NCBI GenBank assembly: GCA_951804945.1
Contig: OX638162.1
Location: 10,726,001 to 10,790,000, forward strand
Length of the DNA stretch: 64,000 bases
Origin: Podarcis cretensis
Taxonomy: Eukaryota
Direction of reading: 5' to 3'
Part shown: positions 1 to 62,865 of the stretch, piece by piece
Position numbering within the stretch: position 1 is the stretch's first letter
Layout of the letters: each line of letters begins with the position of its first letter
Made by a program: the position numbers and the translations under genes
The notes under the pieces: model-generated
The model's input: the letters and a program-made list of their open reading frames with translations, nothing else
Told to the model about the DNA's origin: nothing
Database searches by the model: none

Positions 1-224
1 CAGAGCCAGAGCCAGAGCCGCACACGGAAACGCCGTTTACCTTCCCGCTGGTAAGCGGTCCCTATTTATCTACTTGCACCCGGAGGTGCTTTCGAACTGC
101 TAGGTTGGCAGGCGCTGGAACCGAGCAGCGGGAGCGCACCCCGCTGCAGGGATTCAAACCGCCGACCTTTCGATCGGCAAGTCCTAGGCGCTGAGGCTTT
201 AACCTTTAGTGCCACCTGCGTCCC
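1..224 (-). mobile_element. Sauria SINE, young subfamily (5' part; 3' part outside window), inserted in ERV integrase
   Basis: Reverse complement begins GGGACGCAGGTGGCACTAAAGGTTAAAGCC with tRNA-like A/B boxes; about 97% identical (7 differences) to the SINE at 29293-29663; integrase codons resume at 225. Confidence 0.93.
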
Positions 225-769
225 AGAATTGCGCAAAAAGCTGTGCTCAATTCTGTGAAACTTGGAATAGTCACCATTTATTTGGCATCCCTTATAATTC
301 TCAAGGCCAAGCTATTGCTGAACGTGCTAACCACACTTTGAAAACTGCTTTAATCCGGCAGGAAAAAAAGGCCGGAGTCCCAGCCTCACTTTCAGAAAAG
401 GAAGGCTGGTTGGCTAGTGTTCTCTTTACTCTTAATCATTTGAATGTTTCCATACAGGATCATGAATCCTTTACTCGGCTCCAAAAGCATTTTCAGCAGA
501 AAGAGATACTTCCAGCCCCGCTGGTCCGTTATAAAATATTACCCTCCAACGAATGGAGTGAACCAGTGAAATTGATTACGTGGGGAAAGGGTTATGCTGC
601 AGTTTCTACTCCACAGGGTGCTCGCTGGGTTCCCGCACGCTGCGTCTGCCTCTATCATGGCTTGGCAACAGGCCCTGCAGAATCCGATACCACAGTTCGA
701 CGGTCAACTGCAGATCGCCCAGGATGCGACGCCCGGCCCCCCCAGGACTCGCAAGCGGGGAAATCGTAA
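225..769 (+). pseudogene. pol: Retroviral integrase C-terminal part, interrupted upstream by a SINE
   Basis: GIPYNSQGQAIAERANHTLK (catalytic Glu region) and LITWGKGYAAV...RWVPAR, typical of class II integrases; stop at 767-769. Confidence 0.92.
600..616 (+). promoter_or_regulatory. Probable env splice acceptor
   Basis: tttctactccacag lies in the WGKGYAAVSTPQG codons, the position used by betaretroviruses; first downstream ATG (657) has strong Kozak context atcATGG. Confidence 0.65.
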
Positions 770-2135
770 TGGACCAGTGACGTGGGGCCAAATAAAACCA
801 CTCTCACTTCAAGCTGAACAGTTTAGAAAGGAAAAGCACCTGGAAGCAACCCCTGATAATTTGCTTCTATGCCTCATTTCATGCCTTAATATAAATTCCA
901 TGATAGTGCTCATTTTCAGTGTTTTGTTTTTGCCCCTCTCTGCTTCCGCTCCTAACAGCGGTGATTCCACACCAATAAATGTGTGGGAATCTTTTGCAAA
1001 AAACCTCAATGTTTCTTCCTTTTGCCTAACTCAACAGGTATCAATAGGTGAAATCCTTGGCTCTTGCCTTATCCCTGTTTGCCATGACCCTTTTGATATG
1101 CAAAATGATACCTGGTTTTATTCATCCCTACCCCAAAATGATTCCCTTCGCACCCTTGGTTATTCCGGTTACCATCACTGGGGTAACCAACTGCGTCGAC
1201 GCCCATCTCTGGCAATTGATTTGTTAACCCCATACGTGGCCTCCTCTAATGCCACTTGTGCCCGTATGGTCAATTGCACTAAAACCAACTGTGTGAAAAT
1301 GGGCAAGGATAACAATTTTAATTGCTCTAATTATGTAAATATTTCATATATATATAAATATACAGAGCTGCCTGAAGGCTGGTTCTGGTCGTGCCCAGGC
1401 TATACATTCAATTATATTCCGGCAAACATCAGCCATGGCACACCTTGTTGCTTAAGCCGTTTGTCCATCATTTTACCCAAGAAGCATCATTTATCTCGCT
1501 CTCGATATCAACGCTCTGTAGAATTGACTAATGATTGTGATGGTTCTGTTTCTCTCCCTAGCAGATCTGAATATATTTCTCTAGCTGTCTCTCTCTTAGG
1601 AGTCCCTGGACTGGCTGTACGGAATAGCAGGAATATTAATTCTTTAGCTTGCTCTGCAGCAAAAGCTCTGAACTTTACCTCACAAGCCCTTCACCTTTTG
1701 AATAAAGAGCAGAGTGAGCTCCAACATGGACTCTTACAGAATCGCGCTGCAATTGATTATTTGCTGATGCTTCATCATTATGGATGCGAACAAGTGGATG
1801 ACATGTGCTGTTTTAATATTACTGACAATTCTAAGGCTATTCAAAAATAGATTTCTCATTTGCAAAATCTCACACATCACATCAAACAGGACGATGGACT
1901 TCCTGGCCTCTGGGATTCGTTTACCCAGTGGCTCACTGGCTGGTTGCCAAATCTGAATTGGCTTCGCAATCTTTTCCAATATGCTATTGTCATAGTATGT
2001 ATATTAATTTTGCTATGTTGCTTCATCCAATGCATCCCTGGTCTCATACACCTTTGGTTTCAGTGTTTTTCTCCTCCTCAGCCACCCAATAAAATCATTG
2101 CTGCCTACTTTGCGAAATGGCAGCACCAACAGTAA
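657..2135 (+). pseudogene. env: ASLV-type envelope glycoprotein with one premature TAG at 1848-1850 (397-aa ORF; 492 codons if read through)
   Basis: SU NVWESFAKNLNVSSFCL...SCLIPV; furin site RYQR; Cys-flanked internal fusion peptide; ISD LQNRAAIDYLL and CX6CC (CEQVDDMCC); membrane anchor YAIVIVCILILLCC in the same frame after the stop. Confidence 0.92.
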
Positions 2136-2149
2136 ACATTAGGGGAGAT

Positions 2150-2307
2150 GTGGGCAGAATTATTTCGGGCATGCGCTGGCAAACCACGAATCCCGAAGTA
2201 TTTTTGTCCCATTCACCCTGAACTCACTTAACAACATCGGTGGGCAGAATTATTTAGGGTATGCGTTGGCAAACCACGTATCCCGATGTATTTCTGTCCC
2301 CCTCACC
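2150..2307 (+). repeat. Two ~68-nt direct repeats (period 90), each folding into a long hairpin; ERV 3' UTR
   Basis: gggcagaattatttcggg...tggcaaacca...cccgaagtatttttgtccc at 2152-2210, second copy at 2242-2300. Confidence 0.85.
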
Positions 2308-2310
2308 ATT

Positions 2311-2333
2311 AAATAAAGAAAGAAAGGGGGAGA
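2311..2333 (+). other. Polypurine tract
   Basis: aaataaagaaagaaagggggaga directly before the LTR TG. Confidence 0.9.
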
Positions 2334-2848
2334 TGATGGGATGCTATGAGTCTTGCACATGACTGTGGCCTGATGGGAAGTCTTGCTCCTAAGCTTCGCT
2401 TCTGTACATAATGCTGCACAAACCATCCTAATACTAAGACATTCACTCACCACTTTAGAATGTTCAGTTCACATTGAGTTCAGGAAAACATTGTCCTTTG
2501 ACCTGTTCTTATATGCATAGTTGATCACATCTACGGAACGTGCTTGTTATGCTCTTTTAAGTTTCCTATATCAATCATTAGTAATTGTTTTAAGTCTTAC
2601 TATATTAACCATTGGTTATAATTTAATTAGGAGGTTTTCATGCCTGTCTAGTTCTGCGCTCCCTTTCCCAGTCTTTAATCTATTGGTGATTAATGCAACC
2701 TTTGCTTTGTACTTGTGTTAACCAATCAGCAATAAGCACATATGTGGCAATGCTGTAATAATCAATAAAAGAGGCTCCTTGGGACTTGCTCGAGGAGATG
2801 CCTCCCAGATGACACTCGCTACCTGTCTGTCGTTATTTCAACCCAACA
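2334..2848 (+). mobile_element. 3' LTR (~515 bp)
   Basis: Termini TGATGGG...CCCAACA after the PPT; CCAAT at 2722; AATAAA at 2764-2769. Confidence 0.85.
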
Positions 2849-4692
2849 GATCCCCACCCCAACGCCAGTCCAGATGACTTCAAAACATATTCCCCACCAC
2901 CCAACAACCCACAAACAGGCTAAAATCTGACACAATCAGCACAATGGTGGCACCAGAGCGTACCAACACCCACATCCCCACCCCAACATTCTGCTAATAA
3001 CATGTTGCTAATAACACTGGCAACACTGCTTATGAACCCTATACCCAACATTGGCGTCACAAAGACGCTTAACACTGTGTCACTGACCACCCCCTATCAT
3101 AAATGACAGGGAGGATGGTCTACCCCTGAACTAGGCCATCCATGCCAGCTGAGACTCAGGACCAACCGGCTAAACGCCATATGGCCCAAAATACCCCTAA
3201 CAAACACCTATATGACTACATATAGGATATTCTCTATAACCTAGCATACCCACTCCTCCCAAACAAACTAAAGAAAATTCCCACAACACTTAATAGGTAC
3301 ACACAGACCATGCTCAAAGCATGGAAAACAGAAATAGGCAAACTATCCCCAACCCCAGCCACACTAATCTCCCTGGCGTACCACCTATTATTCCACCATG
3401 CAGCACAAAACCTCCAGATTAAAAACCTGGCGAACCAAAGGCTTATATCGCCCAATAGACTTTTATAAAACCTTTGTCAACACAAGAAATACAAGACAAA
3501 CTAGAAGACACCCAAATGCCCTGGTTAACACAACACCAAGTACATGCCCTCTTAAACAACCCAACAGTAAAATCAGCAGCAACTAGGCCCCCGACAACCT
3601 TCGAAAACCTCCTAACAACAAAGGGAAACGGTAAAGGGACGGTATCCGCAATATACAAAATACTACTCCAAAATCCCTCAAACCCCCTAGACACAATCAA
3701 AAAACAATCGGAGAATGACATAGGCTATGAGATTAACCCCACTCAATGGACCAGAATGTGGTCTAAACCCCCCTTTAAATCCATATCAATGAAAAGAAAA
3801 GAACTCACTTTGAAACTCACCTAGAGGTGGTACCTAACACCAAGAAAACTAGCGCTAATACGCCCAGGAACCTCACCAAAATGCTGGAGAGGGTGCACCT
3901 CCACAGGCACATACCTCCACATGTGGTGGGAGTGTCCCAAAATCCAACTATTCTGGACAACAGCCATGCAAGAAATAGGTAAAATAACTAAGCAAGTATT
4001 AGACATCACCCCAGAATTGGCCCTACTAAACATCTTCCAAGACAACAATGCCCATTTACACCACAAAGAACTCATAACCCACCTACTTTCAGCAGCCAGA
4101 AACACCATAACCAGACACTGGAGAGACCTGTCAGGAGTAAGCATGGACCAATGGTACCAAATAGTATGGGAAACAGCCCTACTAGAAAAATTAACCAATA
4201 AACTGAAACTGACACGGGGACAAACAGAAGAAGATGCCTTTACCCCAGTATGGCGCCCCTTTATCACATACACAGCCCAACAAGACAATGACAATAATCC
4301 ACCAACAGCATACAAATCAATATGGCTAACCTGATCCGAAACACCCACCCACCCCACTCACACACGAAAACAAAGATCACCACATCCAATCACAAACAAA
4401 CAACCACACCCTAGGCCAACCCCAACCTCTCTTACCACCAAAGGAACACAAGTGAACAAAACAAACAGCGCTGACACCAAACCCTACATACATTAAGCAT
4501 AACAGAAACATCGCCACCCAACCCCACCCCCACCCATCTTCCCTCCCTCCACCCCCTTTCCCCCTCCCCAATGTCTCAACAAATGAAACGGATTTGTAAA
4601 AATGTTACATGGAAAAAATATGAGAGACATTACACATACTTCTGTAAAACAAGAAAATCTTTAATAAAAAATTTAAAAAACAACAACAAAAA
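2849..4692 (+). mobile_element. L1-clade LINE 3' portion (degenerate ORF2 C-terminus, 3' UTR, A-rich tail); 5' boundary uncertain
   Basis: WYLTPRKLALIRPGTSPKCWRGCTSTGTYLHMWWECPKIQLFW Cys/His knuckle; stop and frameshifts; AATAAA plus A-rich tail 4663-4692; 2849-3230 assigned only by shared A/C skew. Confidence 0.8.
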
Positions 4693-4971: not shown

Positions 4972-7900
4972 CTGAGGAAACAAACAAAAAACAATTGGAC
5001 TAAAGGGAAGAAGAGAAACCAGCAGTGTGAGCAGGGAGTCTGGAAGTACTGGAGTATTTAGGTCACTAGAAAACACATTATCTGGAGCAAACATTTTTGG
5101 GCAAACGAAACCGAACAATTTTAACTGAAGATACATTGTAAGATATTTACAGCTGGGATGGTTCTAGAAAGCATTTGGTTATCACAAACCTGCTCCCAAT
5201 TTGAATGTGCAACCCAGCTCCTATGTGAGGCTTTCATTTCTTGAACCGTGGCAACCTTGACCACCCTCCTTGCTCCTCAGTTCTACTCATCCAGACTTAC
5301 TTTTCTTTCTGAAGGTTTTCAATCTGTTCCGTCAAAACCCTCTCTTCTTCCTGCATGGCAACTTTCTGCTGCTCAGAAACCTCTGCCTCCATGGCCTCTT
5401 CGCCACTCAGGACCTCTTCAGAAGCATCAGAGGCAGATGGCAACCGGAGAGGAGCTGGAGATGAAGGACTTGGGTAGGCCCCACGATGTAGCCGACCTTT
5501 ACCCTGTAGGCACAGTAGCGCTAATGAGGAGCACGGCCTTTTAAGCCCACTCTGAAAATTACTGACACCCCTGATATATGTATGCAATATAACGAGCAAA
5601 CAAACAACACCTGTGTGTGACTGGCAGAGAAAGACAAAACAGGGAGCAAATACACATTTAAGGACACACGAATTATTTCAGAGGTTCTTTAAAAAAAAAA
5701 CATTTCAACTATAGATGATGAGCAGAATTTTGGCAGGTATCAGAAGTCACTCCTTTATTCTACAGATGTAGTTTACAACAAAGGTACCTCTGTTGGCCAA
5801 AGCATCTGTGCAGGAAGAGAATATCTGGATTTCTACATATATTACTATACTATATAGTATATTATTATGCTATACTATATATAGTATACTGTACTATATA
5901 AAATCTTCCCACACAATATTGTAAGAAACCTTTGTGTTTTTCTATGTGGAAAGTCTGAGAACAAGAGATAAATCCACCTATAGTTGATTATCCTCCATTT
6001 TGCACTGTGTAGTGAAATTCCATGACTAACAAGTGCATGAGGGTAGCTATCCCTGAAGACAGTGCCATGAAATATTCAAATTCTGATCAGGCAGTTCCAG
6101 ACTGTCCTATGGAACTGGATCCTACATGATCACACCTGTCTCAATTTATACAATTTCCTTTAGTGCTGTCTCTTTTCTTCTTGAATAAGCTTGCTCTAGA
6201 GAAGCAATCCTGGACCTCTGAAAGGGTGGAGCCGACGTTCTTATAACAGGAAAGAATTCCCTTTTCCCTCTTAGGCGGACACTGTGTGCCGTACTCCCAG
6301 ATAAATAGAAAATACAGTATCGCAAGGTTGCGCCTCTGTGCAAGAAGACCCAATGAAGCGCTGAAAGCAAATTTGATACAATTTGCTTTCTTAAGAGTCA
6401 AGGCTTTGAACTGCACACTTGCAAGATTGCATTTAAGTCTAGAAGAAAAACTGCAAAAGTGAGAATGGAGCGTGAAAGATCTTTTTTTATACACTACTGA
6501 GAAACTGCATAGAAACACAAAAACAACTTTTGATGGATCAGAGGAAATGGTCCCATCTACTTCAGCACCCTGCCAGCTGGTTTTGGAAAGGGCATGAAGG
6601 CAATTGCACAGTACACCCACGTGCAGGTACAGAAAATGTCCAGTAATTGTTTTTCTTAGGGAAAAGCAGCTTCAAGTGAAAGAGCTCTTGTGAAACATGG
6701 TGGGGAGAAGGCATTGAATCCCTCTCTCAGACTGCCAGATCTGTACTCCAATCTGTACAGCGGCTTTTCTGCCTAAAGAATTGTAGATGTGCACTCTCAG
6801 AAAGATGTGCTTGAAATCCCAAAGGAAAAGTTGTTTGGGAGCAGCGATTTGAGGCAGGGATGTGGCAGGTAGATGAAACACCACTCACTCCTCATCTCCA
6901 CTGCTCCTCTGCTCAGAATTACCACCCCCAGAGCTCCACCTCCTCCAGAAAAGGCCTATGTTAAATTTGTATGTGTGGGACAGGTTGTTCTACTCAAAGT
7001 AATGTCTGAATGCTTATCTAAATTTAAAAATATTTGATTCTCTAATGTGGTTATGCCCCACTGGTGTTGTTGTTGAAAAAAATTAAACAGGACTATATTT
7101 AGTATATGGGACGCGGGTGGCGCTGTGGGTTAAATGACAGAGCCTAGGATTTGCTGATCAGAAGGTCGGCGGTTCGAATCCACGTGATGGGGTGAGCTCC
7201 CGTTGTTCGGTCCCTGCTCCTGCCAACCTAGCAGTCCAAAAGCACACCAAAGTGCAAGTAGATAAATAGGTACCGCTCCAGGCAGGAAGGTAAATGGCGG
7301 TTCTGTGTGCTGCTCTGGTTCATCAGAAGCGGCTCAGTCATGCTGGCCACATGACCCAGAAGCTGTATGCCGGCTCGCTAGGCCAATAAAGCGAGATGAG
7401 TGCCGCAACCCCAGAGTCGGTCACGACTGGACCTAATGGTCAGGGGTCCCTGTACCTTTACCTATATTTACTATCCAATTGAATCCAATTATTTGAGCTG
7501 TATCTCAGTGATAGAACATGTGCTTTGTATGCCTAAGGGTTATCAACTTCTATCCCAGGCATTTCAGTTAAATGCATCCTGAGTAACAGGTATTGTGAAA
7601 GATCCCTGCCTAGGATCCTACAGAGCCACTGATGGTCAGAGCAAACAAACCAGTCAAGATGAACCAACACAGGCAGTACCCCACTTCTGATAAAGTGAAA
7701 CACTCTGGAGAGCAGCAGTTTGTTCCTGGAGACAATACTGAGCTAGACAGATCTGACTCTGCAAGGCAACTTCCTATGTTCATTTACTTGCAAGGAAGAT
7801 TCATAATTACCATTGGCATTTCTTCTAGCAAGAAGAGGGGGAAAGCAGACTCCTACATTGCCCCTCTCTGGTAAGGTAATGGATGATTTCTTGTTTTCTG

Positions 7901-25900: not shown

Positions 25901-28900
25901 GGCTTTCTGAAATTTGTCCACACATACAGGAAATAAAATGCAGATATGGAGGAAAAAGAAAATTAGACGCAATTAACTCAGGATCTCCCCCTTTCTTTTG
26001 GCTAGACATTTTATACCTTCCATCTGCAGCTGCAGTCTTCTGTGCAGCTGCCAGTTTTCCAAGCTCTCCTTGGGACATTGTTTTTTGAAGAGTTGTTTGG
26101 CCTTCACTTGAAGAGAAGCGCTGTAGCAGCTGCAACAATTAGAAGCACAATAAATACTTCAGAACCCACAAGGTCGCTGGATATTGTAAGGATACACAAA
26201 CATCTTACAACGGTGTAGATATTTAAGCTGCTGCAGAGAATACAACTCACTCTGAAAAATATACTTGGAGGAAAAATTCTTTGCCTTGACTTCTGCTTGG
26301 TTGCCAAAGAACCAGCTATATAAGGAAAACATCTACAGGTCCCTTGTTACAGAGGAAAGGAATATGTAGTACATCAGTCGCCTGCCACTATTGGCTCAGA
26401 AAGTCAATAGCAAAGAAAACAGCAAGGAGCTCCATGTTTATTTTCTGTCTGATGTATTTTCGGAAGCTGCCAGATGGTGCCTGTGGACTCCAGTTATGCT
26501 TCCGAAAATGCTTCACACCCTCTTTATAAGATGTGATTATGGATTATGGTAGAGAGGTTTGCTATAGCAACTTTTCCAGGCACAGCAAGGTTGGGGGGGA
26601 GTGTCTAGCAGTTTACTGGAAATTCAGATATGAGAAATGAACACAAAGCAGTTTATTGGAAATGATTTTTCCCCCTGATGAGATTGAGTGTAGGGCTAGA
26701 TAAGGGAAAGGAAGGGAGAGGAGCTGGAGTCCTCACTACAGTCAAAATCAGTGGCCTGTGAATTTTCAGTTTCAACAGTAACATGGAAGAAATAGTAACA
26801 TTGCTAAAGAACAACAATAAAATAATGCCCCACTCTCCCTTTTCTTGACTTAATAGTGGACTCAGGCCAGGTGAGACCTGCAGGCAGAAGTTCACGGTGC
26901 ATAGCTCTTGAATAGATACATGTATGAATCAGCAACAAGACATAGCTAGCCTGTCTGTCCTCCCAGAGTTGCTATATGCACTGCCTTGTCCCATGAACTT
27001 AACTTGGTTTAATAAGATGATACAAGAACAAGACTTGTACTTGTGCCTGAGAAAAGACTGGCTGGAGCAGACCAAAGATCTATCTGGCCCAACATCTTGT
27101 TTGCCATTGTGGCCAACGAGATGCCTCTGGGAAGACCAGAAGTAGGATGCGAGAGCAAAAGCCCTCTCCTGTGGTTGTTCCCCGTGGCCCTCACAATGAG
27201 TAGTCACTACAAGTCTTAGCCTCCATTCATTTCTCCAATTCCCTTTTAAAGTCAGCTAAGCTGGTGGGCGTCCCCACGTCATGTGGTGGCAAAAGCAATA
27301 GATTTTTGTGTGAAGTAGTATTTTCTCCCTGTAAGTCCCAGATTTCTCACCATTCAGCTTCACTGGATGACCCTGGGGTCTAGTATTACAAGGGGGAAAT
27401 AAATCACTCTCGTCTTCCTCCACACTTACCACTATCATACTTTTCTCACTCACATTTTAAAAAGAAAGTAAAGATCCCCAAACATGATAACCTTTCCATA
27501 TAGAGAAATTGCCCACAATTTTTTGAGCTTTTCTACACCTTTCCCAGTTCTAAAATATCATCTTTGAACTGTGGTAACCAGAACTGTACACAGTAATCCA
27601 AGTGTGATCACGTGTGAAAAGCCAGAAAGTCTTCAGTCAACTAAAGTTTCCCAGGGCATTTGAAACAAGGAACAATAGTTACCCAATTCAGAAAAGCCAG
27701 CATCTTTAACTACTTATTAAAGTCGTTTTTTGCCTGAAGTACAGTATAACACCAGGAATTATCCTACTGATGCTTAAACTGTCAAGCAAGTGAGCAGTTG
27801 TGTTGCCTAGCGACCACTCAGAATGCTTTGATTCTTCAATCCAGAGCTCTGATTGGCTGTGTGGTTGTGAAGGAGTTTTTCCCTTGTATAGTTGCTCTGG
27901 ACCAGGCCTGAACTCTTTTTCTCCAAATATTATATAATGTACTGTAGATATAATATTATACACTGCTTTTGTTCCATTTACTCTCTGTAAAATTGTAGAG
28001 TAAGCCTGTAATTTATGGACATTTAACTCGTGTGCATTCTGCTTTATGTGTTTGGCAAAAAAGACGAATTATAGTTGTTGTTGTTTAAAAAAATAAATTA
28101 AAAGGGGAGTGGAGAGGAGGTGGGTGTCTGGGGAAAAAGATTTGCACAATTCAACCCCCCACTGAACCCAATATGCTTTGACTATACATAATTTTGGCTT
28201 TGGGTGCGATTTCCGGTATGTAACCCCCTGCAAGTTGTGTATTTACTGTAAAGGCAAAGGTAAAGGTAAAGGGACCCCTGACCATTAGGTCATCTCGCTT
28301 TACTGGCCGAGGGAGCCGACATACAGCTTCTGGGTCATGTGGCCAGCATGACTAAGCCGCTTCTGGCGAACCAGAGCAGCGCACGGAAACGCCGTTTACC
28401 TTCCCGCCAGAGCGGTACCTATTTATCTGCTTGCACTTTGACGTACTTTCGAACTGCTAGGTTGGCAGGAGCAGGGACCGAGCAATGGGAGCTCACCCCA
28501 TCGCGGGGATTCGAACTGCCAACCTTCTGATCAGCAAGTCCTAAGCTCTGTGGTTTAACCCACAGCGCCACCCGCGTTCCAGTGTGCATTTACTGTCCCA
28601 GTTTCTTTTCTCTCTTGATTCCATCAGATTTATTTCAGTCAGTCTGCTAACAGTTTTAGGATCCTGGCTTGTTGCAAACCTAGCAACCATAATTTCCCAA
28701 GGGATCTGGTCTGTCAAGTCACAAGAGTCATGACATTGCCCTCATGCAAAAAGGGGTTCATTGGGGCTTCGATGTGTAGAAGGCGGAACAGGAAAATTGT
28801 TTGTTTCCCCTCCTTCTTGCTAGACAGGGGCCAAAGGGTTTTGGGTACTTAGCTGTGCCTGATGCAACACCTTTACCATGAGCAAAGAAGATGCCGCATC

Positions 28901-31900
28901 AGTGTAAACATTTGTAAGCTTAAACAAAACCCAGCAAGCACCTCCTGGCCCCTTAAACATTAACACATTCTTATTGTGAATTAGCTTTGGTAGACAAGCT
29001 CAACATACTTTATTGCAGGTGTGGGGAACCTTTGGCCCTCCTGATGATGCTGAATTGCAACTACAGTCATCCCCAGCCAGCATGGCCAATGGCCAGTGGT
29101 GATGGGAGCAACATCTGGAGAGTCAAAGATTCCACACACCTGCTTTATCGGATGGACTATGAATGACTATAAGGACTTCAGTCAGTTAAGTTTTACATTT
29201 CAAAGCTAATTCAATATTCTCAAGTGGAATATTGCATACCACTATCATACTTTTCTCACTCACATTTTAAAAAGAAAGTAAAGATCCCCAAAGGGACGCA
29301 GGTGGCGCTGTGGGTTAAAGCCTCAGCACCTAGGACTTGCCGATCGAAAGGTCGGCGGTTTGAATCCCTGCGGCGGGGTGCGCTCCCGCTGCTCGGTCCC
29401 AGCGCCTGCCAACCTAGCAGTTCGAAAGCACCTCCGGGTGCAAGTAGATAAATAGGGACCGCTTACCAGCGGGAAGGTAAACGGCGTTTCCGTGTGCGGC
29501 TCTGGCTCTGGCTCTGGCCAGAGCAGCGATGTCACGCTGGCCACGTGACTCGGAAATGTCTCCGGACAGCGCTGGCCCCTGGCCTCTTAAGTGAGATGGG
29601 CGCACAACCCCAGAGTCTGTCAAGACTGGCCCGTATGGGCAGGGGTACCTTTACCTTTACCTTTAAAGATCCCCAAATATCATAACTTTTCCATATAGAG
29701 AAATTGCCCACAATTTTTTGAGTTTTTCTACACCTTTTCCAGTTCTAAAATATCATCTTTGAACTGCGGTAACCAGTACTGTACACAGCAGTCCAAGTGT
29801 GATCACTTGTGAAAAGCCAGAAAGTCTTCAGTCAACTACAGTTTCCCACTGCATTTGAAACAAGGAACTATAGTTACCCAATTCAGAAAAGCCAGCATCT
29901 TTAACTACTTATTGAAGTCGTTTTTTGCCTGAAGTACAGTATAACACCAGGAATTATCCTACTGATGCTTAAACTGTCAAGCAAGTGAGCAGTTGTGTTG
30001 CTTAGCGACCACTCAGAATGCTTTGATTCTTCAATCTAGAGCTCTGATTGGCTGCGTGGTTGTGAAGGAGTTTTTCCCTTGTATAGCTGTGCTCTGGACC
30101 AGGCCTGAACTCTATTGAGAGCCAGTGTGGTGTAGTGGTTAAGAGCAGTAGATTCGTAATCTGGGGAACCGGGTTCGCGTCTCTGCTCCTCCACCTGCAG
30201 CTGCTGGGTGACCTTGGGCTAGTCACACTTCTTTGAAGTCTCTCAGCTTCTCAAGTGGAAAAAAATTAATAACGACTCTAAAAGAACGCTCCAGAAATTT
30301 AAAGAAAAATTTAAACTTGTTTAAAAGAAGTTCAACCACTTATATGTAATACTGTTCTTTCCTTTGGAGAAGAACCATTGTTTGGTGATAAAATCACTGC
30401 TTGGCACACAGGTTTAATCTCTGGTATCTCCAATTAAAACTATCAGGTAGATGGTGATGGGAGAAGAGACCCTTATCTTGAGATTCTGGAGAACCTCTTA
30501 TTAGCCAGTGCTATAAGGCAGATTCCAACTTATTATATTCCACATACACTTGCCAAAATATCCAAGCTTATTCCCAGCTTAAATTCTGAGTAACTGTATT
30601 CATTTCTCAGTTATTCATATACACTAACAGGGGAAATCGCAAAGGAGAAGAATATATGAGGAAATACGAGGATATATGATAGCCATCTTCAAATATCTCA
30701 AGGGCTGTGACTTGGAAGATGAAGCAAGCTTGCTTTCTCCTGCTCTGGAGCGTAGGACTCTAACCAATGGCTTCAAATTACAAAACAAGGGGATTCCGAC
30801 TAAACATTAATAAGAACTTTCTGACAGTAAGAGCTGTTCAATAGTGGAACAGTCTCCCTTGGGAGGCTGTGGAGGTTTTTAAGCAGTGGTTTGATGCCCC
30901 TCTGTCATAGATGTTTGAGCTGAGATTCCTGCCTATCAGGGGGTTGGTCTAGATCAGTGTTTCCCAACCTTGTGCCTCCAGCTGTTTCTGGACTACAATT
31001 CCCATCATCCCTTGCCACTGGTCTTGCTAGTCAGGGATGATGGGAGTTGTAGTTCAAAAACAGCTGGAGGCACAAGGTTGGGAAACACTGGTCTAGATGA
31101 CCCTTGGGTCCCTTCCAACTCTACAATTCTATGAAATCCAAAGTGATAATCATGGAGAAGTATGTATGGGTTTATAAAAACTTCTTGAAGTGTGTGGCTG
31201 GAATGCAACCTATTGTGCAAAAGTAAGAGTCATATCTTTTGCTCTGCTCACTTTTGGCCTTTGGTTCTGCCCGCCACTGGCATTGTGGCCCCAGAAGGTT
31301 GTCCATGAGGGAATGTGGCTCCTGGGTTGAACAATGCTCCCTACCAGTGGTGCACAAGTACAATCTACCCAGCTTTGCTATAGCAACCGAACATTTGAAG
31401 TAGGAGAAAACACCATGGCTGTAATGCAGTAGAAGATAAAAGAACCATATAGCTTCACTATATCTGTAACTAAGAATGGTTTCACTATAGATATTATTGC
31501 TTTGCTGACATCTTTGGAAAAATAGCAGGCTAGTGAAATGCGATCATACTTTGTGAGAAGATGAACTGCAACCTCTGCTTGCACCTCCAACTGCAGCCAA
31601 AAGAGAGATTTGGAAGGATAAAATGTTAATCTCCCAACTTCTCTATGTCCTGAAATTTTTTCAGAAGCTTCAGAACTATAAATCACAATAAACTATGTAC
31701 ACCACTTAGAGATGAATATATTGTTGAAATAAATAAAAGATTTTAAAAGAACCTGTAGTCATGCCTGTCAGCATAAATATCCAACACAGCATGAGACTAG
31801 AAAAGTTTCCTGCTACATAAAAAAATGTTTCTTTGTCCTAAACTTGAGATTGATCTCCCAACCACACAAGTAAGTTATTCAAAAAAGGATGTCATTTCTG

Positions 31901-34492
31901 CTGCAGAACTCATAAAAGCTATAAAATGAGACTTTGTGCTGTTCAATGCAGAGAACCATTAACTTCATTTTTTAAAAAACATGTTTCTACTTATATTCAT
32001 GTATATGTTGCTGTGCGACATTTATCACTGTCCAGGAACAGATTTAAGTTCTTTTGTGCAGTGGTGCATCATGATCTGCTTTGCCACGGCCAGTTAGCCA
32101 AGCTAGTCAGCAGTAGAAGGACTGTCACTTAATCAGATTTTATAAATCAATGCTATGCTAGTATTTGTATTCTATTTGCACTGTAAATGTATTTCACAAA
32201 AAATAAATGGTATTGGGGAAAGGTGGTGGAAGTTGGTGGTTGGTTATTCTCTTAGCTGATTCTTTGCCTGAGAACATGGGAGTGTGGTGACTTCAAGCAG
32301 ACACTGTCTGGAGGAGTTTGTGAGGACAGGCAAGCTAAGGATTAATAACTTATGTTATTAAGGAGTTTTGAAAACAAAAGAGACTAAACCCTCTCTTAGG
32401 CTCAAGGGAGAGAAGCACATTGTATTCATTAATATATATACAGTCGTACCTTGGAAGTCGAATTCCGAAACATTCGAAAACCAAATCGCGGCTTCAGATT
32501 GCCTGCAGGAAGCTCCTGCAGCCAATCAGAAACCGTGGAACCTGTCAGACGTTCAGGTTTCAAAAGAATGTTCATAAACCGGAGCAATCACTTCCAGGTT
32601 TGTGGCATTCAGGAGCCAAAACGTCAGAGTTCCAGGGCATTCACTATCCAAGGTACGACTGTATATGAATAATACTTGTTGTTCAACTGTTGCTAACCTG
32701 TCAAGTCTTCTGCAAGGCGCTTATTTTATCACAAATAGCTAACACGCTATGCCTAAGATTGCTTTAATGCACTCAAAAGCCTGTGACTAATGCACAACAC
32801 TGGGAAAACATTGACTTTCAGGGCTTTTGTTCACTAATAACCAACTGGTGCAGAGGCGATAACCTACTTTCTTTCTTTCATAAAATCAATCAACTCTGCA
32901 TATAGTCAGGCTGCCTGACTTGCCTGCTTCTTTTACTGGATGCTCAAGCTAAATACCTTATATATATGCCAGTGTCCTTTCCTATATCCACTGCTGTACT
33001 GAAGGTTGCTTTATTATTACTTGAGATTAAAACGCAGCCTCTGCAAAGGGTAGCCATTAACATCTGAATACTAATGAACCACTTCCACCCTCCGAAGTTA
33101 GCAAACCGGCACATCACGGCTCTGCTTTACGCAGACGACGCGGTAATACTATCCAGAACCCCTATAGGGCTTAGAAGAGCACTAAGAAAATTTGCTGCCT
33201 ATTGTGAGACGGAATGCCTCAAAATAAATTATCAGAAAACCAAAATTCTTGCTATTGGGGAAAACCCAAATCTCAGAAACTGGAAACTTCAAGGCCAAAA
33301 TATAGAACAAGTCTCGAACTACAAATATTTAGGAATGGCGGTCCAGGTATCAGAATCCAACAAAATTCATATTAACTCAAATGGGTGTGCTGGAGAAAGA
33401 TCTGCAAATGCTATTTTTAATTTTTTTAGAACTCAAGGGGGTTTTTATGTCCCCATGACACTAAAATTATATAAAGCCAAAACGTTGGCACAGCTCCTTT
33501 ACGGATCCTTTCTGGGCCCACCTTCCTCCTCGTGTACATTCCCCTTGAAAGAGTGAAATCCAAACTCCTCAGAGCCCTTCTACAAGTTCCCAGATGTGTT
33601 TTCAAATGCATAGGTCAGACTAGAAACAGGGATGATGAAAGTCGAAGCTCATATTAGTCTAATATCAATATATAAGCGGCTAACTTTGAAACTGCTCCCC
33701 AAAGGAATAGCCCCATTGATTCTCAGCAACCAGTTTCATTCTGGCTGGCAGACAGCAGTTCTAAACACTCTTCAGAAACTGGGCTTTGCTCCCCAAACCC
33801 TCATAACTATGGGCCTGGGCCAAGCTAGATCCGTGGTCAAGCAAAGAATCATGGAAATAAAGAGACAACAGGACTGTACAAGGGTCCCCGATTATAAAAT
33901 CATAAAAAATGGGAGATATGTAGCCACTCCAGCAACATATCTCTATTTCCTCGCATCCAGAAATGCAAGAAGGGCTTTCACTCTTGTTAGAAGCTCGGTC
34001 TTGCCCTCACCGGTTCTGGAAGGCTCCTATGGAAGTGTCCCGTACGCACAGAGACTTTGCGCCTGCCCATTAGGGGAAATAGGAAGCCCCAAACATATAT
34101 TTTTTAGATGTCCTTTTTATGCTGAGATTTGTAGAGAAACCACTGACCCTTTGCTGAAGATGCTCGCCGATCTTCCAGACAAGTCTACACTTAATTCTCT
34201 CCTCTTAGGCAAGGTCACAAGACGACCTGGCTGGTAGCCAGATTCTGCGCCCAGATTTGTAGGCACAGATCATCCTCTAGAATAAAATAGCTTACTAGGG
34301 AAAAGCTGAAGTTGCCCTTTGGGACGCCTCAGGATCAATTTTTATGGTAGCCCAAATCTCAGTTGTACGGGTGTATGTATATATTTAAATTTTAACTCGC
34401 AAGCTATTGCTGCAATCTGCTCAAATTGTATATTTTATCTTTATGAACGCTGTCATTATTGTGTTATGCGAGCTGGTCTTTGACTGTAATAA

Positions 34493-40500: not shown

Positions 40501-43500
40501 TTTTGCAAATCTATCACCCTTCTCTTTAAAGCATTGCAAGGCTTTGGATTAGATGACCCTTGGGGTACTTTCCAAATCTACAATTCTATGAGGCTTTCCT
40601 TTTTCTTCCAAGCTTGTTCCTCTAGCAATATGGCAAGATTATTAAGTCAATCACCATTACTAGCAACAATAAAATGTAAAAGTAAGAAAGAAAAGTGAAA
40701 TTAATAACAATACTATACCTGAGAAGAGATGAGATGGGTGTGATGGGCTTTAACAAGTATGAAAACCATGCTGTAAGCCAAATTAAGTTTGCATCTTAAT
40801 TAACCCTTTATTCCCTTTATTTCTGAGCTCATTGTTCCTAATTAAAATTTCCGCAGCATTCCACTGAAACTTCTTTACACCCCTTGGCCCTTTTCTACTC
40901 CCTTTCAATCCCTTGGTCTTTATTCACCTGCTGCACTTCAAGTGGTCAATATTGGCTACTTTGGGAACTCCTGATTTACACGCACTTTTGTCCTCCCATG
41001 AAGGGCACAAGTATTACCTCTGCCTTGCTTTGTATCCTCTATACGCTGCTTGCAACAAAATTACTTTGTTTCTCTTGGCCCTGTAGACACTTCTGGTGTG
41101 GTAGCTTCGCCATTTTGCCTGGACGATGGTAGCTGCAGCATTCCGGTGCCTCAAGCATTCCCGCCAGTAGCTCTGGATAATGAAGCCAGCCACCCGCATC
41201 TGCTGAAATCTTCTCCTTGCCACAAAGCCTCGCCAGTAGGCCTGAAGAACAACTGCTGCCTTGCCTAAACAGATGGAATTGTTTAGGGACTCTTCTTCCT
41301 CAGCTTGCTTTCTTCTTTGGTAACTACGCCAGTATTGCTATGGGAAGAGTGAGAGAAAATATTTTCCACTACTCCATACTGTGTCAGATTCCCTTAAAAG
41401 AAAAATCCTTGAAAACAATATCTAACAAAGATCCAGTAGCATAACCACAATTTCGCCTGCTAATAAGACCAAGTGGTATTGAATGAAGAAGAAAGGCTGA
41501 ACAGCCATTTTCTTATTCTTGTGGATGACTAATCTGTACTCACGGGGGAAAAAAGTTTTAAAATGATGAGGTGCAAGCATTTTTAAAGCTGGTGTTTTAC
41601 TGACATTTAAGATGACAGAAGACAAAGCAAAAGAGAGAGCAATCATGTTTTTCAATAATAACCTGGACAAATACTTTGTGGTATGAATGAAATTGAGAAG
41701 GGACTTTTAGTGTTAGTAAAGATATACACATGATATGAAAATAATTTTCTTAACTGTGCATAAATATACTGACATATGCCTTACTATGTATTAAACTTCC
41801 ACATTCCTTGTTATTACAATGCCACTGTTCTGCACATAACTATGCCCTCATTTCCACACAACACTAAGCCAAACCATGGTTTAGTGTGAATGAGCATGTT
41901 CCTAGATAAGAGATTGTGGTCTCTGCTTCCCCTCAGTGGTTCTGCTGCTGCGCTGCACTGAGCCAAGCCATGGTTTGGTTTAGTGCAGAGCTTTCCAAAC
42001 AGTGTGTCGTGACACGTTAGTGTGTCAGCTGCAGTGTGCAGTATGTCGCACGAATGATCGTGCAGTATGTCACACGAATGCTCTTATAAGGAGTTAGTTT
42101 AACCTCCGGTGTGCTGGCAAAACTGAATTACTATGTCACAAAATGATGCATATCTAAAAAGTTTGTCAGCAACATGGACGGTTTGGAAAGCTCTGGTTTA
42201 GTGTGTCATCCAAACCATGGCTTTGTGCAAATGAGCAAAATCTGGGGTGGAGATTGTGATCACTTTGTTCCTCCTTTGATTATCTTACTGCTGCACTGTG
42301 CTGTGCTAAGTCTGGCTGTGTGTTGTCCAAACCCAGGTTCGTGGTTTAGAGAAATCATGAGCTGCAAACCATAGGCTAAACCTTGGTTACTGTTTGCAGT
42401 TTGTCTGGAGCGAGTTTAACCCCAAGTCTTTGTTCAAAATCAGCACAGTGCTGCAACAAAATGACTGAGGAGAAGCAAAGCATTCACAATCTCCTCTCTG
42501 GGAGTGTACACATTTGCTTGTGCAAAGGAAGGCATGGTTTGGCTTAGTGTTATGTACAAACCAGGCCTATATGTAACATAAAAGAAACAGCTTTTGTCTT
42601 GAGATAAACGTCAGGCATGCTAAATGTCTGAAATTACTGGAAATCACACTGTTGACACCCACCTGTATGACCACAGCAGCCTGCTTCAAATTCAGGAACT
42701 GCCTCCTGTAGAGCATAGTGCGGAACCAGCTCTGCAACAGAGTGATCCTTCGCAACACCTCCTCATGCAGCAGGCCCTGTAGAAGCTGACGTCCCTGCTC
42801 TTTCATGAAAACCTAACAATGTGGAGAGCAATAATAAATGCCTATTTATTAATGAACAAATTACTGTCAGTTCCCCACCAGGCACATATAAAGATTTCTG
42901 CAAAATAATTGCAATGGTGTAAGTAACAAAACAAAGGAAGAACCTGTTCTGCCCACCAATCTTGGCACTCGCAAGGGAAAAAGAGCCTGAATATTCATCC
43001 AGGGAAACAACTGGCTGAACATATGGAATCTTATGAACTTTTTTGGGGGGTTTTACCTCAAGTCTGCAGCCTGAATACTTTAAAAAAAAATAATGAAGGG
43101 GATGAGGGAATCACCACAAATTTAAATAATTTATTTTATTTTATTTTATTATTTTTTAAGACACACAGTGAAGCAAATCCACAAAATGCCTTTTAAATAA
43201 AATAAGGGTCACATTTACTTCAGAATCTTTCTCTCCCCTCCTTCAGAAATAAATTCCAACTGATGTTCACGTACTTGAAAATGAACTGAAAGGTGAGTTG
43301 CCTCATTCTAGAGTCTGGGGCAACTTTGGTGTGGCAAAAAAAGTCTTGGGGAGTTGTAATTTTGAGTTCTACCAGACATTGTCTTATTTACATGCAACAC
43401 TAAAATTGTGGCTACTTTGCTCCCCCCCCCCTGCTCATTTTGCTGATGGACTGCACCGAGCTAAACTATGTCACAGTTTGACTTAGTATGCTGTCCCAGT

Positions 43501-47201: not shown

Positions 47202-50200
47202 AGGCTTTTAATTAAAGGAGGTTAGAAAACTACTTAAAGCTATTTAGAGAGCATAGTACTGCTGAAATTAAAACAGCTTTGGCAGAAAGTATATGGGTAA
47301 TTACTATACTGTTCAAAAATTTCAAACTGACATACAATTTATGTCCTGAACTTTATTAAGGACTCATATGGGCATCTGTGGAGTTAGCAGTCACAGCCTA
47401 TGCAAAGTATAAAGTCATATAATCATATCAGTTTGACTTACTGTATATCACATCTGACAATTAATCAGTCTAGCCTGGTATTGTCTACACTGACTGGCAG
47501 AAACTTTTCAGGATCTGAATCAGAGTTCTGTTTCCCAGTTGAGCTACCTCTGACTTTTTAAAAAAAAATATGGAGGTAATAGGAGTGAAGCCGATACATG
47601 ATGCACACAACACATATATTCTACTACTGTGTTATGGTAGCTATGACCCCAAAGGGCTGATTGATGTCTAAGGGATTTTAAAGAAGATCTAAGCCATACA
47701 TAAATGGCTTGGCTTGCAACAATCTTTTCTTTAATGCGAGTCAGTTACTGAGTTGACTTACAGAAGGCTGGAAATGCCCAGAGGGAACTAGAGAATTTAC
47801 TAGTTGGCCAAAAGAAAGAAAAAAAGACTGTGATGTAAAAATGAATGGGACAACCTGGGATAATAAAGAAAATGGGAACTGCAACCAATTGTTGTTCTTG
47901 TTGTTTTTTCCTAAAATGAACAGTAGGCTACATTCCAGTCCATCTAGTATCCCTATTTTATTTCCATTGGAAATAGATATTCTACATGGTTTTCCTTAAG
48001 TTAAACTTCATGAAATTAACAATGGTAAGTTACCTGGAACTGGGCACTGATGCTTGGAGGCTTCTTCTTCTTGTGAAGGTGGAGAAGAGACTTTGTGATA
48101 CGGTCATGGAGAGTTAGGTTCGTCAAGTGCTTGAGCGATTTCACTTCAAGCAAGTGCTAAGAAACACAAAGATTCTAACTTTGGTTATGAGAAATTTGAA
48201 CCAACATAAGCACAAATCTTTGCAAGAAACCAACAGTGGAGCATGGTACCCACAGGTCTCTGCCCCACCCTCCCCCTTCTGAAATTAGGCTTCCACTGTA
48301 GCCAATAGAAGGCTTTTTTCAAGCCCAATTGCAGTTTGGAAGCACAAAGTATACTTTTGGGAGTCTCAACTATTGAGGAAAGAATAAATCTCTACCCTCC
48401 AGATGTAAGCCTCTGAAATTACTCCTCTCTAATTGTTGCCGGGGAGGGGGGGAGCAGTGATCTTCCTGGGGATTATAGCTGAAGAAGGGCCCATGCATTC
48501 CCAGTTGCATTCACCAGAAAAATAATCCACTGCCTCCCACTCCACTTGAAAAAAGTAAAACCCCTTTTTCAAAACCTAACAGTTGATATGGAGTGAGTGG
48601 GCGTGCCATCACAATCTCTGTGGTTGTGGTGCTCACAGCAGTTTACAGTGGTACCTCGGGTTAAGTACTTAATTCGTTCCGGAGGTCTGTTCTTAACCTG
48701 AAACTGTTCTTAACCTGAAGCACCACTTTAGCTAATGGGGCCTTCTGCTGCCATCGCACCACTAGAGCACAATTTCTGTTCTCATCCTGAAGCAAAGTTC
48801 TTAACCCAAGGTACTATTTCTGGGTTAGCGGAGTCTGTAACCTGAAGCGTATGTAACCCAAGGTACCACTGTATATGGTTTGCAAATGTGCACATCACAT
48901 TAATACAGTGGTACCTCGAGTTACAAACACCTCAGGTTATAAACTCCACTAACCTGGAAGAGTTACCTCGAGTTGAGAACTTTGCCCCAGGATGAGAACG
49001 GAAATCGTGTGCCGGCAGCACAGTGGCAGCAAGAGGCCCCATTAGCAAAAGCACGCCTCTAGTTAAGAACAATTTCAGGTTAAGAATGGACCTCCGGAAC
49101 GAATTAAGTTCATAACTAGAGGTACCACTGTACATCAATTGTACACATGGTGAAAACCATACTATGAGTTCGTGGACAGTGTACACTTTCTGTATGCTTT
49201 CTTATGAAAAAGGAATAGCCTTGTAAAAAACAGCATAATTTGTGAAATTAATCTAGTTTAAATATGTTAGCTCAGGTTCTTTAGCTCTAGTACTCTCACC
49301 TTTGGAAGGTTAGGCTTCGCTTTGAAGTTCTTGTTTCGCCTAGGAAGAAGCAACAAAGATCCATATTAAAGCAGCAGGGACATGTTAATGCTAATTTGTA
49401 AACTTTCATGAGAAAAACATTTGCTTCTGGTGTGATGGCAAAGCATGTACTAGTGCAGTGTCAACAAATCTATTGTGAGTGCTGGTTTCATGTGGTCACT
49501 CGCACTCTTGCTTGTGGAAGTGTGTGCATCTGTTTCAGGAATAGCAAACTCCGGCCCTCCAGATGTTTGGGATTACAATTCCCATCATCCCTGACCACTA
49601 GTCCTGTTAGCTAAGGATGATGGGAATTGTAGTCCCAAATATCTGGAGGGCCGGAGTTTGCCTATGCCTGATCCATTTGAAGAGATACTGAACTGAAAAT
49701 ACAAGTTTCACACATATTTTTTCAAACCCACTCAACTCCTAGTGACAAGCTTCTTTAGAACTGCAGACATTCTTTGACAATTAATTCAGATACTTTATTC
49801 TTCCAGCTGCATCTTTGAAGGGGTATTTGGAAATTATAAAAGAGAATATAATTGATGTAATTACAATACTTTCACAAATACCTAAAAGGAGATTTGTGTA
49901 ACACAGGAACCCCTTTTAATTTAATAAATGTTCATAATAAAAACTCTGGCTCTACCGATCAGAGTCTCTGGTCAGCTCCCAAGACCAGAGGAGAGTAATT
50001 GAACTAGAACAGTTCAAAGGTTGCTTCCATGTATTTTATAGTGTCCCAGTTCTGCAGTCTACCTCATCATCCAGATTTAAGATACACTTATGAGGATTTC
50101 TGAATTGTAAATCTGTGTGCCTTGGGTGATGAATGCTGATGGGTAATAGAGACCTCTCTTACCCCAACTTGTCCCATGTTTGTTGCTATCCCTAGAGATC

Positions 50201-62516: not shown

Positions 62517-62865
62517 CTGAATGAAGAGAAGAGAATGTTTTTAGTTGATGATTTTAATACATGTATTCCTATAAGACATACAGATATATTCAGTTCCCAA
62601 ATCATTAGATAATTAGATAATTAGTAAAACAGCAACATGTCTATAGAGCTAAAATTGATTGGTTTTTCACTCTCCTTTTCTAGCACACAGGCACTAAGCA
62701 TCTCTGGGCTGCTTAGTAGGGAGACAAAAGAGTAGCGGCTTGATCAGCATATTTGCATCACAGCAAAAACTACACTCATATCATGCTTCAAACAAACTGG
62801 ATTTTTAAATTTTGTTTTCATGCAGGAAAAGAGTAGTGTGTGAAGAGAGCATTGTTGCTTAAGTG

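Follow-up and report, generated by a model that had tools for sequence, protein, structure and literature searches.

Introduction

Rev-like proteins of betaretroviruses have been named in three viruses, all of them mammalian (PMC5568270). In mouse mammary tumour virus (MMTV), the signal peptide (SP) of the envelope protein Env is a cleaved leader of 98 aa, which is extracted by p97; W57-Q58 is required for extraction, oligomerisation and activity (PMC8725593). Rej of jaagsiekte sheep retrovirus (JSRV) is also a signal-peptide regulator. [quoted passage not shown] Here we analyse the Env leader of an endogenous retrovirus (ERV) of the lizard Podarcis cretensis. It is encoded in a stretch of 64,000 nt (assembly GCA_951804945.1, contig OX638162.1, positions 10,726,001 to 10,790,000 of the forward strand), which is called the window in the following. 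As judged from profile matches across a family of reptile and amphibian relatives, the core of this leader is very probably homologous to Rec of HERV-K, and a repeated RNA hairpin lies downstream of env.

Gamma-type Envs are stated to have short canonical signal peptides of 21-64 aa (PMC9967133). The Env of the lizard virus is of the gamma type, and its leader, with 98 aa and a Rec-like core, falls outside this range. Alpha-like env genes are common in reptiles; the survey that describes them gives signal peptides of 16-32 aa for its bat elements, and Rec is not mentioned in the excerpts available of it (PMC13568524). In a study of a bat betaretrovirus it was argued that the capture of a gamma env removes any Rev-like protein (PMC3621094).

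Results and Discussion

The Env leader matches the Rec profile

Frame, Pfam and repeat analysis of the window showed that it opens within a broken provirus, whose env frame (576-1850) has its start ATG at 657. The 98-codon leader that a first-pass annotation had placed there reads as described, with the quoted motifs present in the quoted order. Its sole Pfam match is HERV-K_REC (PF15695), which covers residues 37-84 with an E-value of 0.0077. The score of 16.7 bits misses the gathering cut-off of 27.5 bits, which one snake relative passes at 30.3 bits. HERV-K_REC was matched by all six aligned copies of the leader and by none of 61 control frames, which were the remaining frames of 90-100 codons without a stop in the window. 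The search with a hidden Markov model of Rec, named in the annotation as a check, thus gave a match with blank controls at a score below the cut-off.

A search of 1.84 billion representatives with a profile of the leader retrieved 29 proteins. Two of them (P0018, P0025) look unrelated, and the others are ERV-derived. Relatives are named from lizards (Anolis, Sceloporus, Hemicordylus, Phrynocephalus, Salvator, Podarcis), snakes (Naja, Pseudonaja, Crotalus), turtles (Gopherus, Mauremys, Caretta) and the caecilian Rhinatrema; the nearest public protein is a product of Podarcis lilfordi with 491 aa, which is 92% identical over residues 1-130. The Rec model was matched at E ≤ 0.1 by 15 of the 29 relatives, 12 of them under 0.01. 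A second search yielded mainly snake members, 14 of the 18 scanned matching at E ≤ 0.1 and one passing the cut-off. UniRef has automatically named the 30.3-bit snake protein "Rec21/ENK19 domain-containing protein"; automatic annotation has already touched the leader family. In the best matches to Rec, the spans of query and profile are equal in length and the register to the profile is therefore free of gaps. It is thus very probable, on profile evidence, that the leader core is homologous to Rec, and the likeness to Rec proposed in the annotation is upheld for the helical core by the Pfam matches across the family and by the blank control frames.

The likeness might also be convergent, if a long amphipathic helix followed by a signal-peptide h-region scored weakly on the Pfam model. 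The subthreshold score of the window leader would fit this explanation, as would the lack of a HERV-K_REC match at 0.1 for the close relative of 491 aa and for a turtle Env. In one scan, three of five leader-bearing sequences did not match HERV-K_REC, which also speaks against homology. A genome-wide PF15695 search gave nothing at E ≤ 1 among the seven candidates scored, the score of the window being weak itself. The ESM Atlas gave best feature scores of 0.82 and 0.76 for two stored relatives, which are leads only, and no Rec cluster. Word-seeded profile searches retrieved no mammalian Rec or MMTV protein for direct alignment, and a search of the PDB with the leader profile gave no match. Against convergence, divergent relatives align gap-free to identical positions of the profile, with one scoring above the cut-off, the 61 control frames are blank, and Rec has this genomic position and this beta-like gag/pro/pol context as well. 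We therefore regard convergence as highly improbable.

The core is conserved and predicted to form a helical hairpin

Across an alignment of 20 leaders, T42, G44 and K47 never vary, and conservation is at least 90% for W43 and P66. At fixed spacing from T42, T65-P66 is found in 34 and N80-S81 in 31 of 37 leaders; these were chosen by means of a pattern around T42-K47, so that counts within the pattern are circular, and one protein lacking it was dropped. The ratio of nonsynonymous to synonymous changes (pN/pS), determined for 13 copies from pairwise counts without a tree, is 0.18 for codons 39-81 (bootstrap 0.09-0.36). The values are 0.28 for codons 82-98, 0.20 for the surface subunit (SU), 0.16 for the transmembrane subunit (TM) and 0.47 for the part that overlaps pol. 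Among sister copies, the core is under constraint as strong as that on SU and TM. The N-regions of signal peptides are usually little conserved (PMC2649029). The caecilian leader is identical in 23 of 42 core residues, and its SU gives no blastp match. The conservation among sister proviruses on which the annotation had made its proposal depend is thus found, and it extends to reptiles and a caecilian. The first 14 residues, which overlap the integrase tail, are conserved like the core across reptiles and the caecilian.

AlphaFold2, run with an alignment of 13 rows, predicted helices at residues 43-59 and 66-90. The confidence score pLDDT is 84-90 across residues 41-80; the N-terminus is poorly defined, the mean is 70, and the predicted template-modelling score (pTM) is 0.44. 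The core is thus predicted to be a two-helix hairpin. A Rec-homologous helical core of this kind is what the Rev-like family has in common, and its oligomerisation is putative here; a homodimer prediction for residues 1-82 gave a score of 0.01, which bears neither way.

The leader precedes three groups of SU (9, 2 and 3 sequences, with one more outside the groups), between which blastp never gave a match better than E 0.06. In a tree of 20 leaders (79 columns) the SU groups interleave, and none of 200 bootstrap trees places groups A and C on one side of a branch; well supported are only 6 of the 17 branches. Repeated exchange of the ectodomain behind a retained leader is likely. The genome of Podarcis cretensis also contains a second, older ERV family (L042, L044, L045, L105, L109, L110) with a related leader, 31-48% identical to the queries, and an alpha-like start of SU.

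Basic patch and putative export signal vary among relatives

The annotation had read an Arg-rich motif and a Leu-rich NES from the leader. The former is present in the window copy, where five of eight residues are Lys or Arg. Among the 37 leaders, at least four Lys or Arg in eight residues occur within 30 residues of T42 in 11, and at least four Arg in 6; the control value for SU is 6 of 87. The patch is strong in the window lineage, in Anolis and in sea turtles, and only two or three basic residues stand there in the snake leaders with the highest scores to Rec. A conserved Arg-rich motif is therefore not found.

In HERV-K, aa 13-20 form the nuclear localisation signal (NLS), aa 54-60 are the NES, and the h-domain spans aa 76-90 (PMC2649029). 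Because the ungapped Pfam register puts the Leu-rich stretch of the lizard leader where the h-domain begins, this stretch corresponds to the start of the HERV-K membrane segment. In the reptile leaders, another hydrophobic stretch (82-94) comes behind a polar break. NES patterns fit helix 1 in one and helix 2 in three of the 37 leaders, the window copy included. The proline in the QIKPL motif quoted in the annotation is private to the window copy, being absent from all 10 sisters that cover the codon and from all 36 other leaders. A classical CRM1-dependent NES is not evident in the leader sequences.

A hairpin array lies between env and the polypurine tract

A 90-nt repeat, whose units fold as hairpins, is located between the end of env and the polypurine tract (PPT), outside the long terminal repeat (LTR). 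The z-scores of the two units in the window are the two lowest of 86 windows across the element. In 21 distinct units, pairing is found in 96.6% of the cells, and both sides change at 6 of the 21 pairs; 0-2 of 500 shuffles reach such values, a test that is inflated by the relatedness of the units. In a wider set of 53 units from 25 of 26 loci, the pair is kept in 23 of 37 variant states compared to 14.9 expected, which none of 2000 simulations reached. Rfam gave no match at gathering score and four at chance level, the best with an E-value of 0.097. Rev-like response elements sit in the env/LTR region (PMC5568270), and this is the region that the array occupies; binding of the leader to it is putative. 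Positions 2150-2307 likewise have the structure expected of CTEs such as the Mason-Pfizer monkey virus (MPMV) and MER11 elements and the Rous sarcoma virus (RSV) direct repeat (DR), and export through NXF1/Tap is putative as well. A short purine run precedes the first hairpin, and the array is possibly the front end of an older LTR that stayed in place as a new one was acquired.

The search for the repeat found further loci. Nine of the ten fetched share one junction, at which pol is missing together with the 5' half of env, the leader included. Six of these nine deletion copies have LTR pairs that are 97.8-99.7% identical; six to seven carry three hairpin units and the others two. These copies thus retain the hairpin in cis and have lost the leader. 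The shared junction was also considered as a copied splice junction, which was rejected in favour of a microhomology join. The deletion copies form a young, non-autonomous clade (L082-L090; contigs C4, C5, C6, C10, C11, C12, C17) of the layout LTR-gag-pro-3' env-hairpins-LTR. Its gag and pro frames are long and open in most copies, and it may outnumber the env-bearing copies.

It is a distinct possibility, to which we give less than even odds, that the hairpins are a CTE which recruits host export factors on its own, and that the core was kept for Env targeting, cleavage timing, quality control or a host-directed nucleolar role. The position of the array matches that of the MPMV CTE (PMC3621094) and of the LTR-derived MER11 CTE (PMC11379458). 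The PPT-like run before the first hairpin points in the same direction, as do the nine copies that lost pol and leader by one junction and kept two or three units, and the poor conservation of both the arginine-rich motif (ARM) and the NES. The HERV-K SP and the macaque protein sRec are precedents of a Rec domain that was retained and is dead in export. However, the deletion copies cannot separate a CTE from a response element, because they require a helper for pol, and this helper could supply the leader too. Moreover, a CTE coexists with a trans-acting leader in JSRV, and the lack of an Rfam family at gathering score counts against a CTE.

Predicted synthesis and cleavage of the leader

Between the predicted splice acceptor and position 657 there is no other ATG, and the start codon has an A at -3 and a G at +4. 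The context of the acceptor is shared by the sister locus L017, and one Podarcis gene model (P0011) joins pol sequence to the acceptor point. Turtle gene models likewise connect the env acceptor with gag or pro sequence. The model of the host gene SLC2A11 in Crotalus (P0027) ends in an ERV leader, which suggests that a host transcript was spliced into the env acceptor.

The annotation had expected cleavage near residue 98. The -3/-1 rule permits it after A96 or A98, P99 disfavouring A98. The N-extension of 81 residues exceeds the 60 aa above which the Env leaders of beta-like viruses are counted as long. Helix-breaking residues typify the substrates of signal peptide peptidase, and the N80-S81 break (894-899), which is conserved inside the long hydrophobic stretch, resembles them. 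Cleavage at this site would release a product without membrane segment.

The active regulator could instead be a spliced product like HERV-K Rec or MMTV Rem, made by linking the exon of the leader with another one that lies close to the end of env. HERV-K makes its exporter in this way, donor-like sites of 6/9 are found just 3' of the leader at 961, 981, 1038 and 1048, and several public gene models of relatives stop soon after the core. No donor-like 9-mer scoring at least 6/9 was found within 657-950, however, and none of 7/9 anywhere in env; furthermore, the recurrent deletion junctions are microhomology joins and not splice junctions. The lack of a strong donor within the leader favours the signal-peptide route, and a spliced regulator is improbable.

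Proposed function of the leader

Homology to Rec by itself does not settle function. By analogy with MMTV SP and JSRV Rej, we propose that the ancestral leader was a Rec-homologous signal peptide that outlived its cleavage from Env and regulated the unspliced RNA of its own virus via the hairpins; the probability of this reading is estimated at roughly 45%. Export of the strict Rev type, as a part of it, is rather unlikely. After splicing to the acceptor at 616, the env mRNA would be translated from the ATG at 657, and residues 82-94 would target Env to the endoplasmic reticulum. Signal peptidase would cut after residue 96 or 98. The leader might then be freed through extraction by p97 via W43, or through intramembrane cleavage at N80-S81, and the basic patch could carry it into the nucleus. 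There the helical hairpin would oligomerise on the repeated RNA hairpins and promote export or translation of the unspliced RNA.

Regulation by the leader is preferred because the Trp-bearing helix pair is deeply conserved and because a structured element is found at the expected place. Several observations weigh against it. Besides the variable basic patch, the rarity of NES patterns and the spread of deletion copies that keep hairpins and lack the leader, a model of the hairpin found no match at two loci of the second leader-bearing family, and no comparable repeat is present at these loci. W43 is taken as the counterpart of MMTV W57 from motif order alone. The full signal peptide of HERV-K has the motifs and enters nucleoli, but it neither shuttles nor exports RNA; a form of 75 residues shuttles (PMC2649029). 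In macaques, sRec has been kept next to an LTR-derived CTE and has no export activity (PMC11379458). The precedents are split two against two, with MMTV SP and JSRV Rej on one side and HERV-K SP and sRec on the other. The leader probably works like the Rev-like regulators and is a candidate member of their family. As to the complex retrovirus with a Rev-like export factor envisaged in the annotation, the long leader and its conserved, Rec-homologous core stand, and the NES and the conserved Arg-rich motif are not supported.

State of the window copy

A partial 5' LTR, situated outside the window at a distance of about 4 kb upstream, matches the last 297 nt of the 3' LTR with four differences. 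A deletion extends from just 3' of the primer site through gag, and insertions interrupt pol. A perfect splice donor 3' of the primer site was looked for and rejected; a weaker, conserved donor-like site was found instead about 84 nt 3' of the primer site, which is present in 10 of 11 sisters and lost in the window copy. A strong donor-like site (8/9) lies inside pro (L015:6113 and sisters) in 11 of 16 loci scanned; the window copy retains a donor-like site in pro, behind six upstream ATGs.

The open leader is kept in 5 of 12 sisters. Because the copy is young and these sisters are open too, the open frame of 98 codons is no sign of use by the host. The copy is a damaged fossil, and a working product is very unlikely. 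The statement in the annotation that the leader could still be made is hard to reconcile with the loss of gag and of the donor-like site at about 84 nt, and with the proline in helix 1.

A beta-like backbone with an alpha-like Env

At least 12 sister loci are found in the genome, with identities of 84-94% across the leader region and LTR lengths of about 365 to 628 nt among copies. In one sister copy, gag, pro and pol occupy separate frames and encode two zinc knuckles and a dUTPase fragment (in pro). Its reverse transcriptase (RT) scores 304 bits to PDB entry 7sr6 and 163 to the best HIV entry, and its integrase 177 to 5cz2/3jca/7usf and 106 to 5ejk/4fw2. The entries behind these scores are presumably those of HERV-K, MMTV and RSV. 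The closest PDB matches of TM are TM structures of avian sarcoma and leukosis virus (ASLV; E 1e-12), and an immunosuppressive domain (ISD) and a CX6CC motif identify the Env as gamma-type. The primer site stands 3' of the 5' LTR in six of seven loci as printed, and its complement has six genomic matches, three of which are tRNA-Trp genes. By sequence, the backbone is beta-like in gag, pro and pol, the Env is an alpha-like gamma-type, and the primer is tRNA-Trp. A continuum from beta to alpha has been described in birds (PMC3482500), and the reptile virus sits near it.

Features of the provirus and its surroundings

The features of the provirus are compiled in Table 1. Directly 3' of its 3' LTR lies a LINE-like fragment (long interspersed element; 2850-4350), and another RT fragment is found at 33068-33367. 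Copies of a short interspersed element (SINE) occupy positions 1-227, 7107-7399, 28290-28581 and 29293-29516, one of them interrupting the proviral pol; we take this element to be the Sauria SINE. Exons of a host myosin gene are found on the minus strand, opposite to the provirus, at 41038-41337 and 62324-62620 (IQ motifs, E 1e-13; motor domain, E 8e-6). An inverted repeat of about 490 bp (48644-49132), whose arms are 77-87% complementary, is possibly a miniature inverted-repeat transposable element (MITE).

Table 1. Proviral features in the window, in order of position.
Feature	Position	Strand	Basis and remarks
pol 3' end, integrase C-terminal domain	203..769	+	Pfam IN_DBD_C, E 1.3e-6; overlaps leader codons 1-38 in a different frame
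env splice acceptor, predicted	603..616	+	AG at 615-616, 41 nt 5' of start codon; pyrimidine-rich
Env leader / long signal peptide, 98 codons	657..950	+	ATG 657 to A98; frame and sister alignment
N-terminal motif, residues 1-14	657..698	+	outside Pfam Rec match; overlaps pol; 8-11 of 14 residues identical in 9 of 10 distant relatives compared
R30-R37, a basic patch and possible NLS or RNA-binding motif	744..767	+	5 Lys/Arg in 8 residues; weak in most relatives
Rec-homologous core T42-S81, predicted helix-turn-helix	780..899	+	PF15695 match, model helices, pN/pS; private proline 48
h-region M82-L94, hydrophobic	900..938	+	3' of polar N80-S81 break; hydropathy highest at residue 83
ASLV-like gamma-type SU and TM	951..2135	+	premature stop at 1848-1850 breaks frame; remaining TM 1851-2135
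Short purine run then TG, before first hairpin	2141..2148	+	possibly what is left of an earlier PPT/LTR junction; found in 20 of 22 sister loci scanned
RNA hairpin unit 1, candidate response element or CTE	2150..2217	+	z -4.3; covariation
RNA hairpin unit 2	2240..2307	+	z -5.2; 90-nt period, 86% identical to unit 1
PPT	2315..2333	+	read from sequence
3' LTR, TG...CA	2334..2848	+	AATAAA at 2764

Implications

In the open-access literature, no description of a Rec-like leader in reptile ERVs was found; subscription papers and supplements may hold one. On sequence alone, the lineage is a counter-example to the view that a gamma env means a short signal peptide or the loss of a Rev-like protein. 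Through this lineage, the Rec domain is recorded from lizards, snakes, turtles and a caecilian, with dozens of divergent homologues, which reveal that the Trp-bearing helix pair is the conserved part of Rec and that ARM and NES are not conserved. The short, covarying hairpin is an RNA element that can be tested directly. The outcome would be either a Rev-like system from outside the mammals, or a new CTE together with a second function of the Rec domain, as suspected for HERV-K SP and sRec.

A wider proposal is speculative and, taken as a whole, doubtful. Rev-like regulation by Env signal peptides might be ancestral to class II retroviruses rather than having arisen in mammals, and the widespread reptile-amphibian lineage might have kept a portable module of the Rec type through swaps of the Env ectodomain, including the acquisition of an ASLV-type one, with the 68-nt hairpin as response element and a non-canonical route of RNA binding and export. 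If this were true, the "simple" alpharetroviruses would descend from complex viruses by loss of the leader.

Comparison with known systems

ASLV and the saurian alpha-like Envs share with the lizard virus the most similar TM and the tRNA-Trp primer site, tRNA-Trp being the primer that ASLV uses. In contrast to ASLV, the lizard integrase scores higher to the entries taken to be MMTV than to those of RSV, and pro carries a dUTPase fragment. The signal peptides of ASLV and of the saurian alpha-like Envs also differ, comprising 16-64 aa with no Rec-like domain in the excerpts available (PMC9967133, PMC13568524). SERV-K/MER11 and MPMV/simian retrovirus (SRV) resemble the lizard virus in their recombinant env and in a non-coding element between env and PPT. 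However, their Rec-like product is dead in export (sRec) or undescribed (MPMV), and the lizard element is a 68-nt hairpin present two to three times.

HERV-K(HML-2) Rec and Env SP have the homologous, ungapped helical core. There too, the N-terminus of Env lies over the end of pol, which is beta-like, and the lengths are 96 and 98 residues. HERV-K Rec differs in being a spliced protein of 105 aa, whose Arg-rich NLS at aa 13-20 precedes the core by about 30 residues, compared to 4-12 in the lizard leader. Unlike HERV-K, the lizard leader has a second hydrophobic stretch after the Rec-like part, and the virus has a gamma-type Env, a tRNA-Trp primer and a candidate RNA element outside the LTR.

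MMTV SP, the leader part of Rem, is likewise a cleaved signal peptide of 98 aa with a basic region followed by a Trp-bearing helix pair, as which MMTV SP has also been modelled, and it works in the way that is proposed for the lizard leader. MMTV differs by its defined ARM with a nucleolar localisation signal (NoLS), its NES and its beta-type Env; it is likened to the lizard leader by motif order. JSRV Rej/Env SP is likened to the lizard leader by function; its Env is of the beta type, and its element JREE is located within the 3' end of env. Rej together with JREE, a 3' RNA element that serves as CTE and as response element alike, is the closest functional model for the lizard leader and its hairpins.

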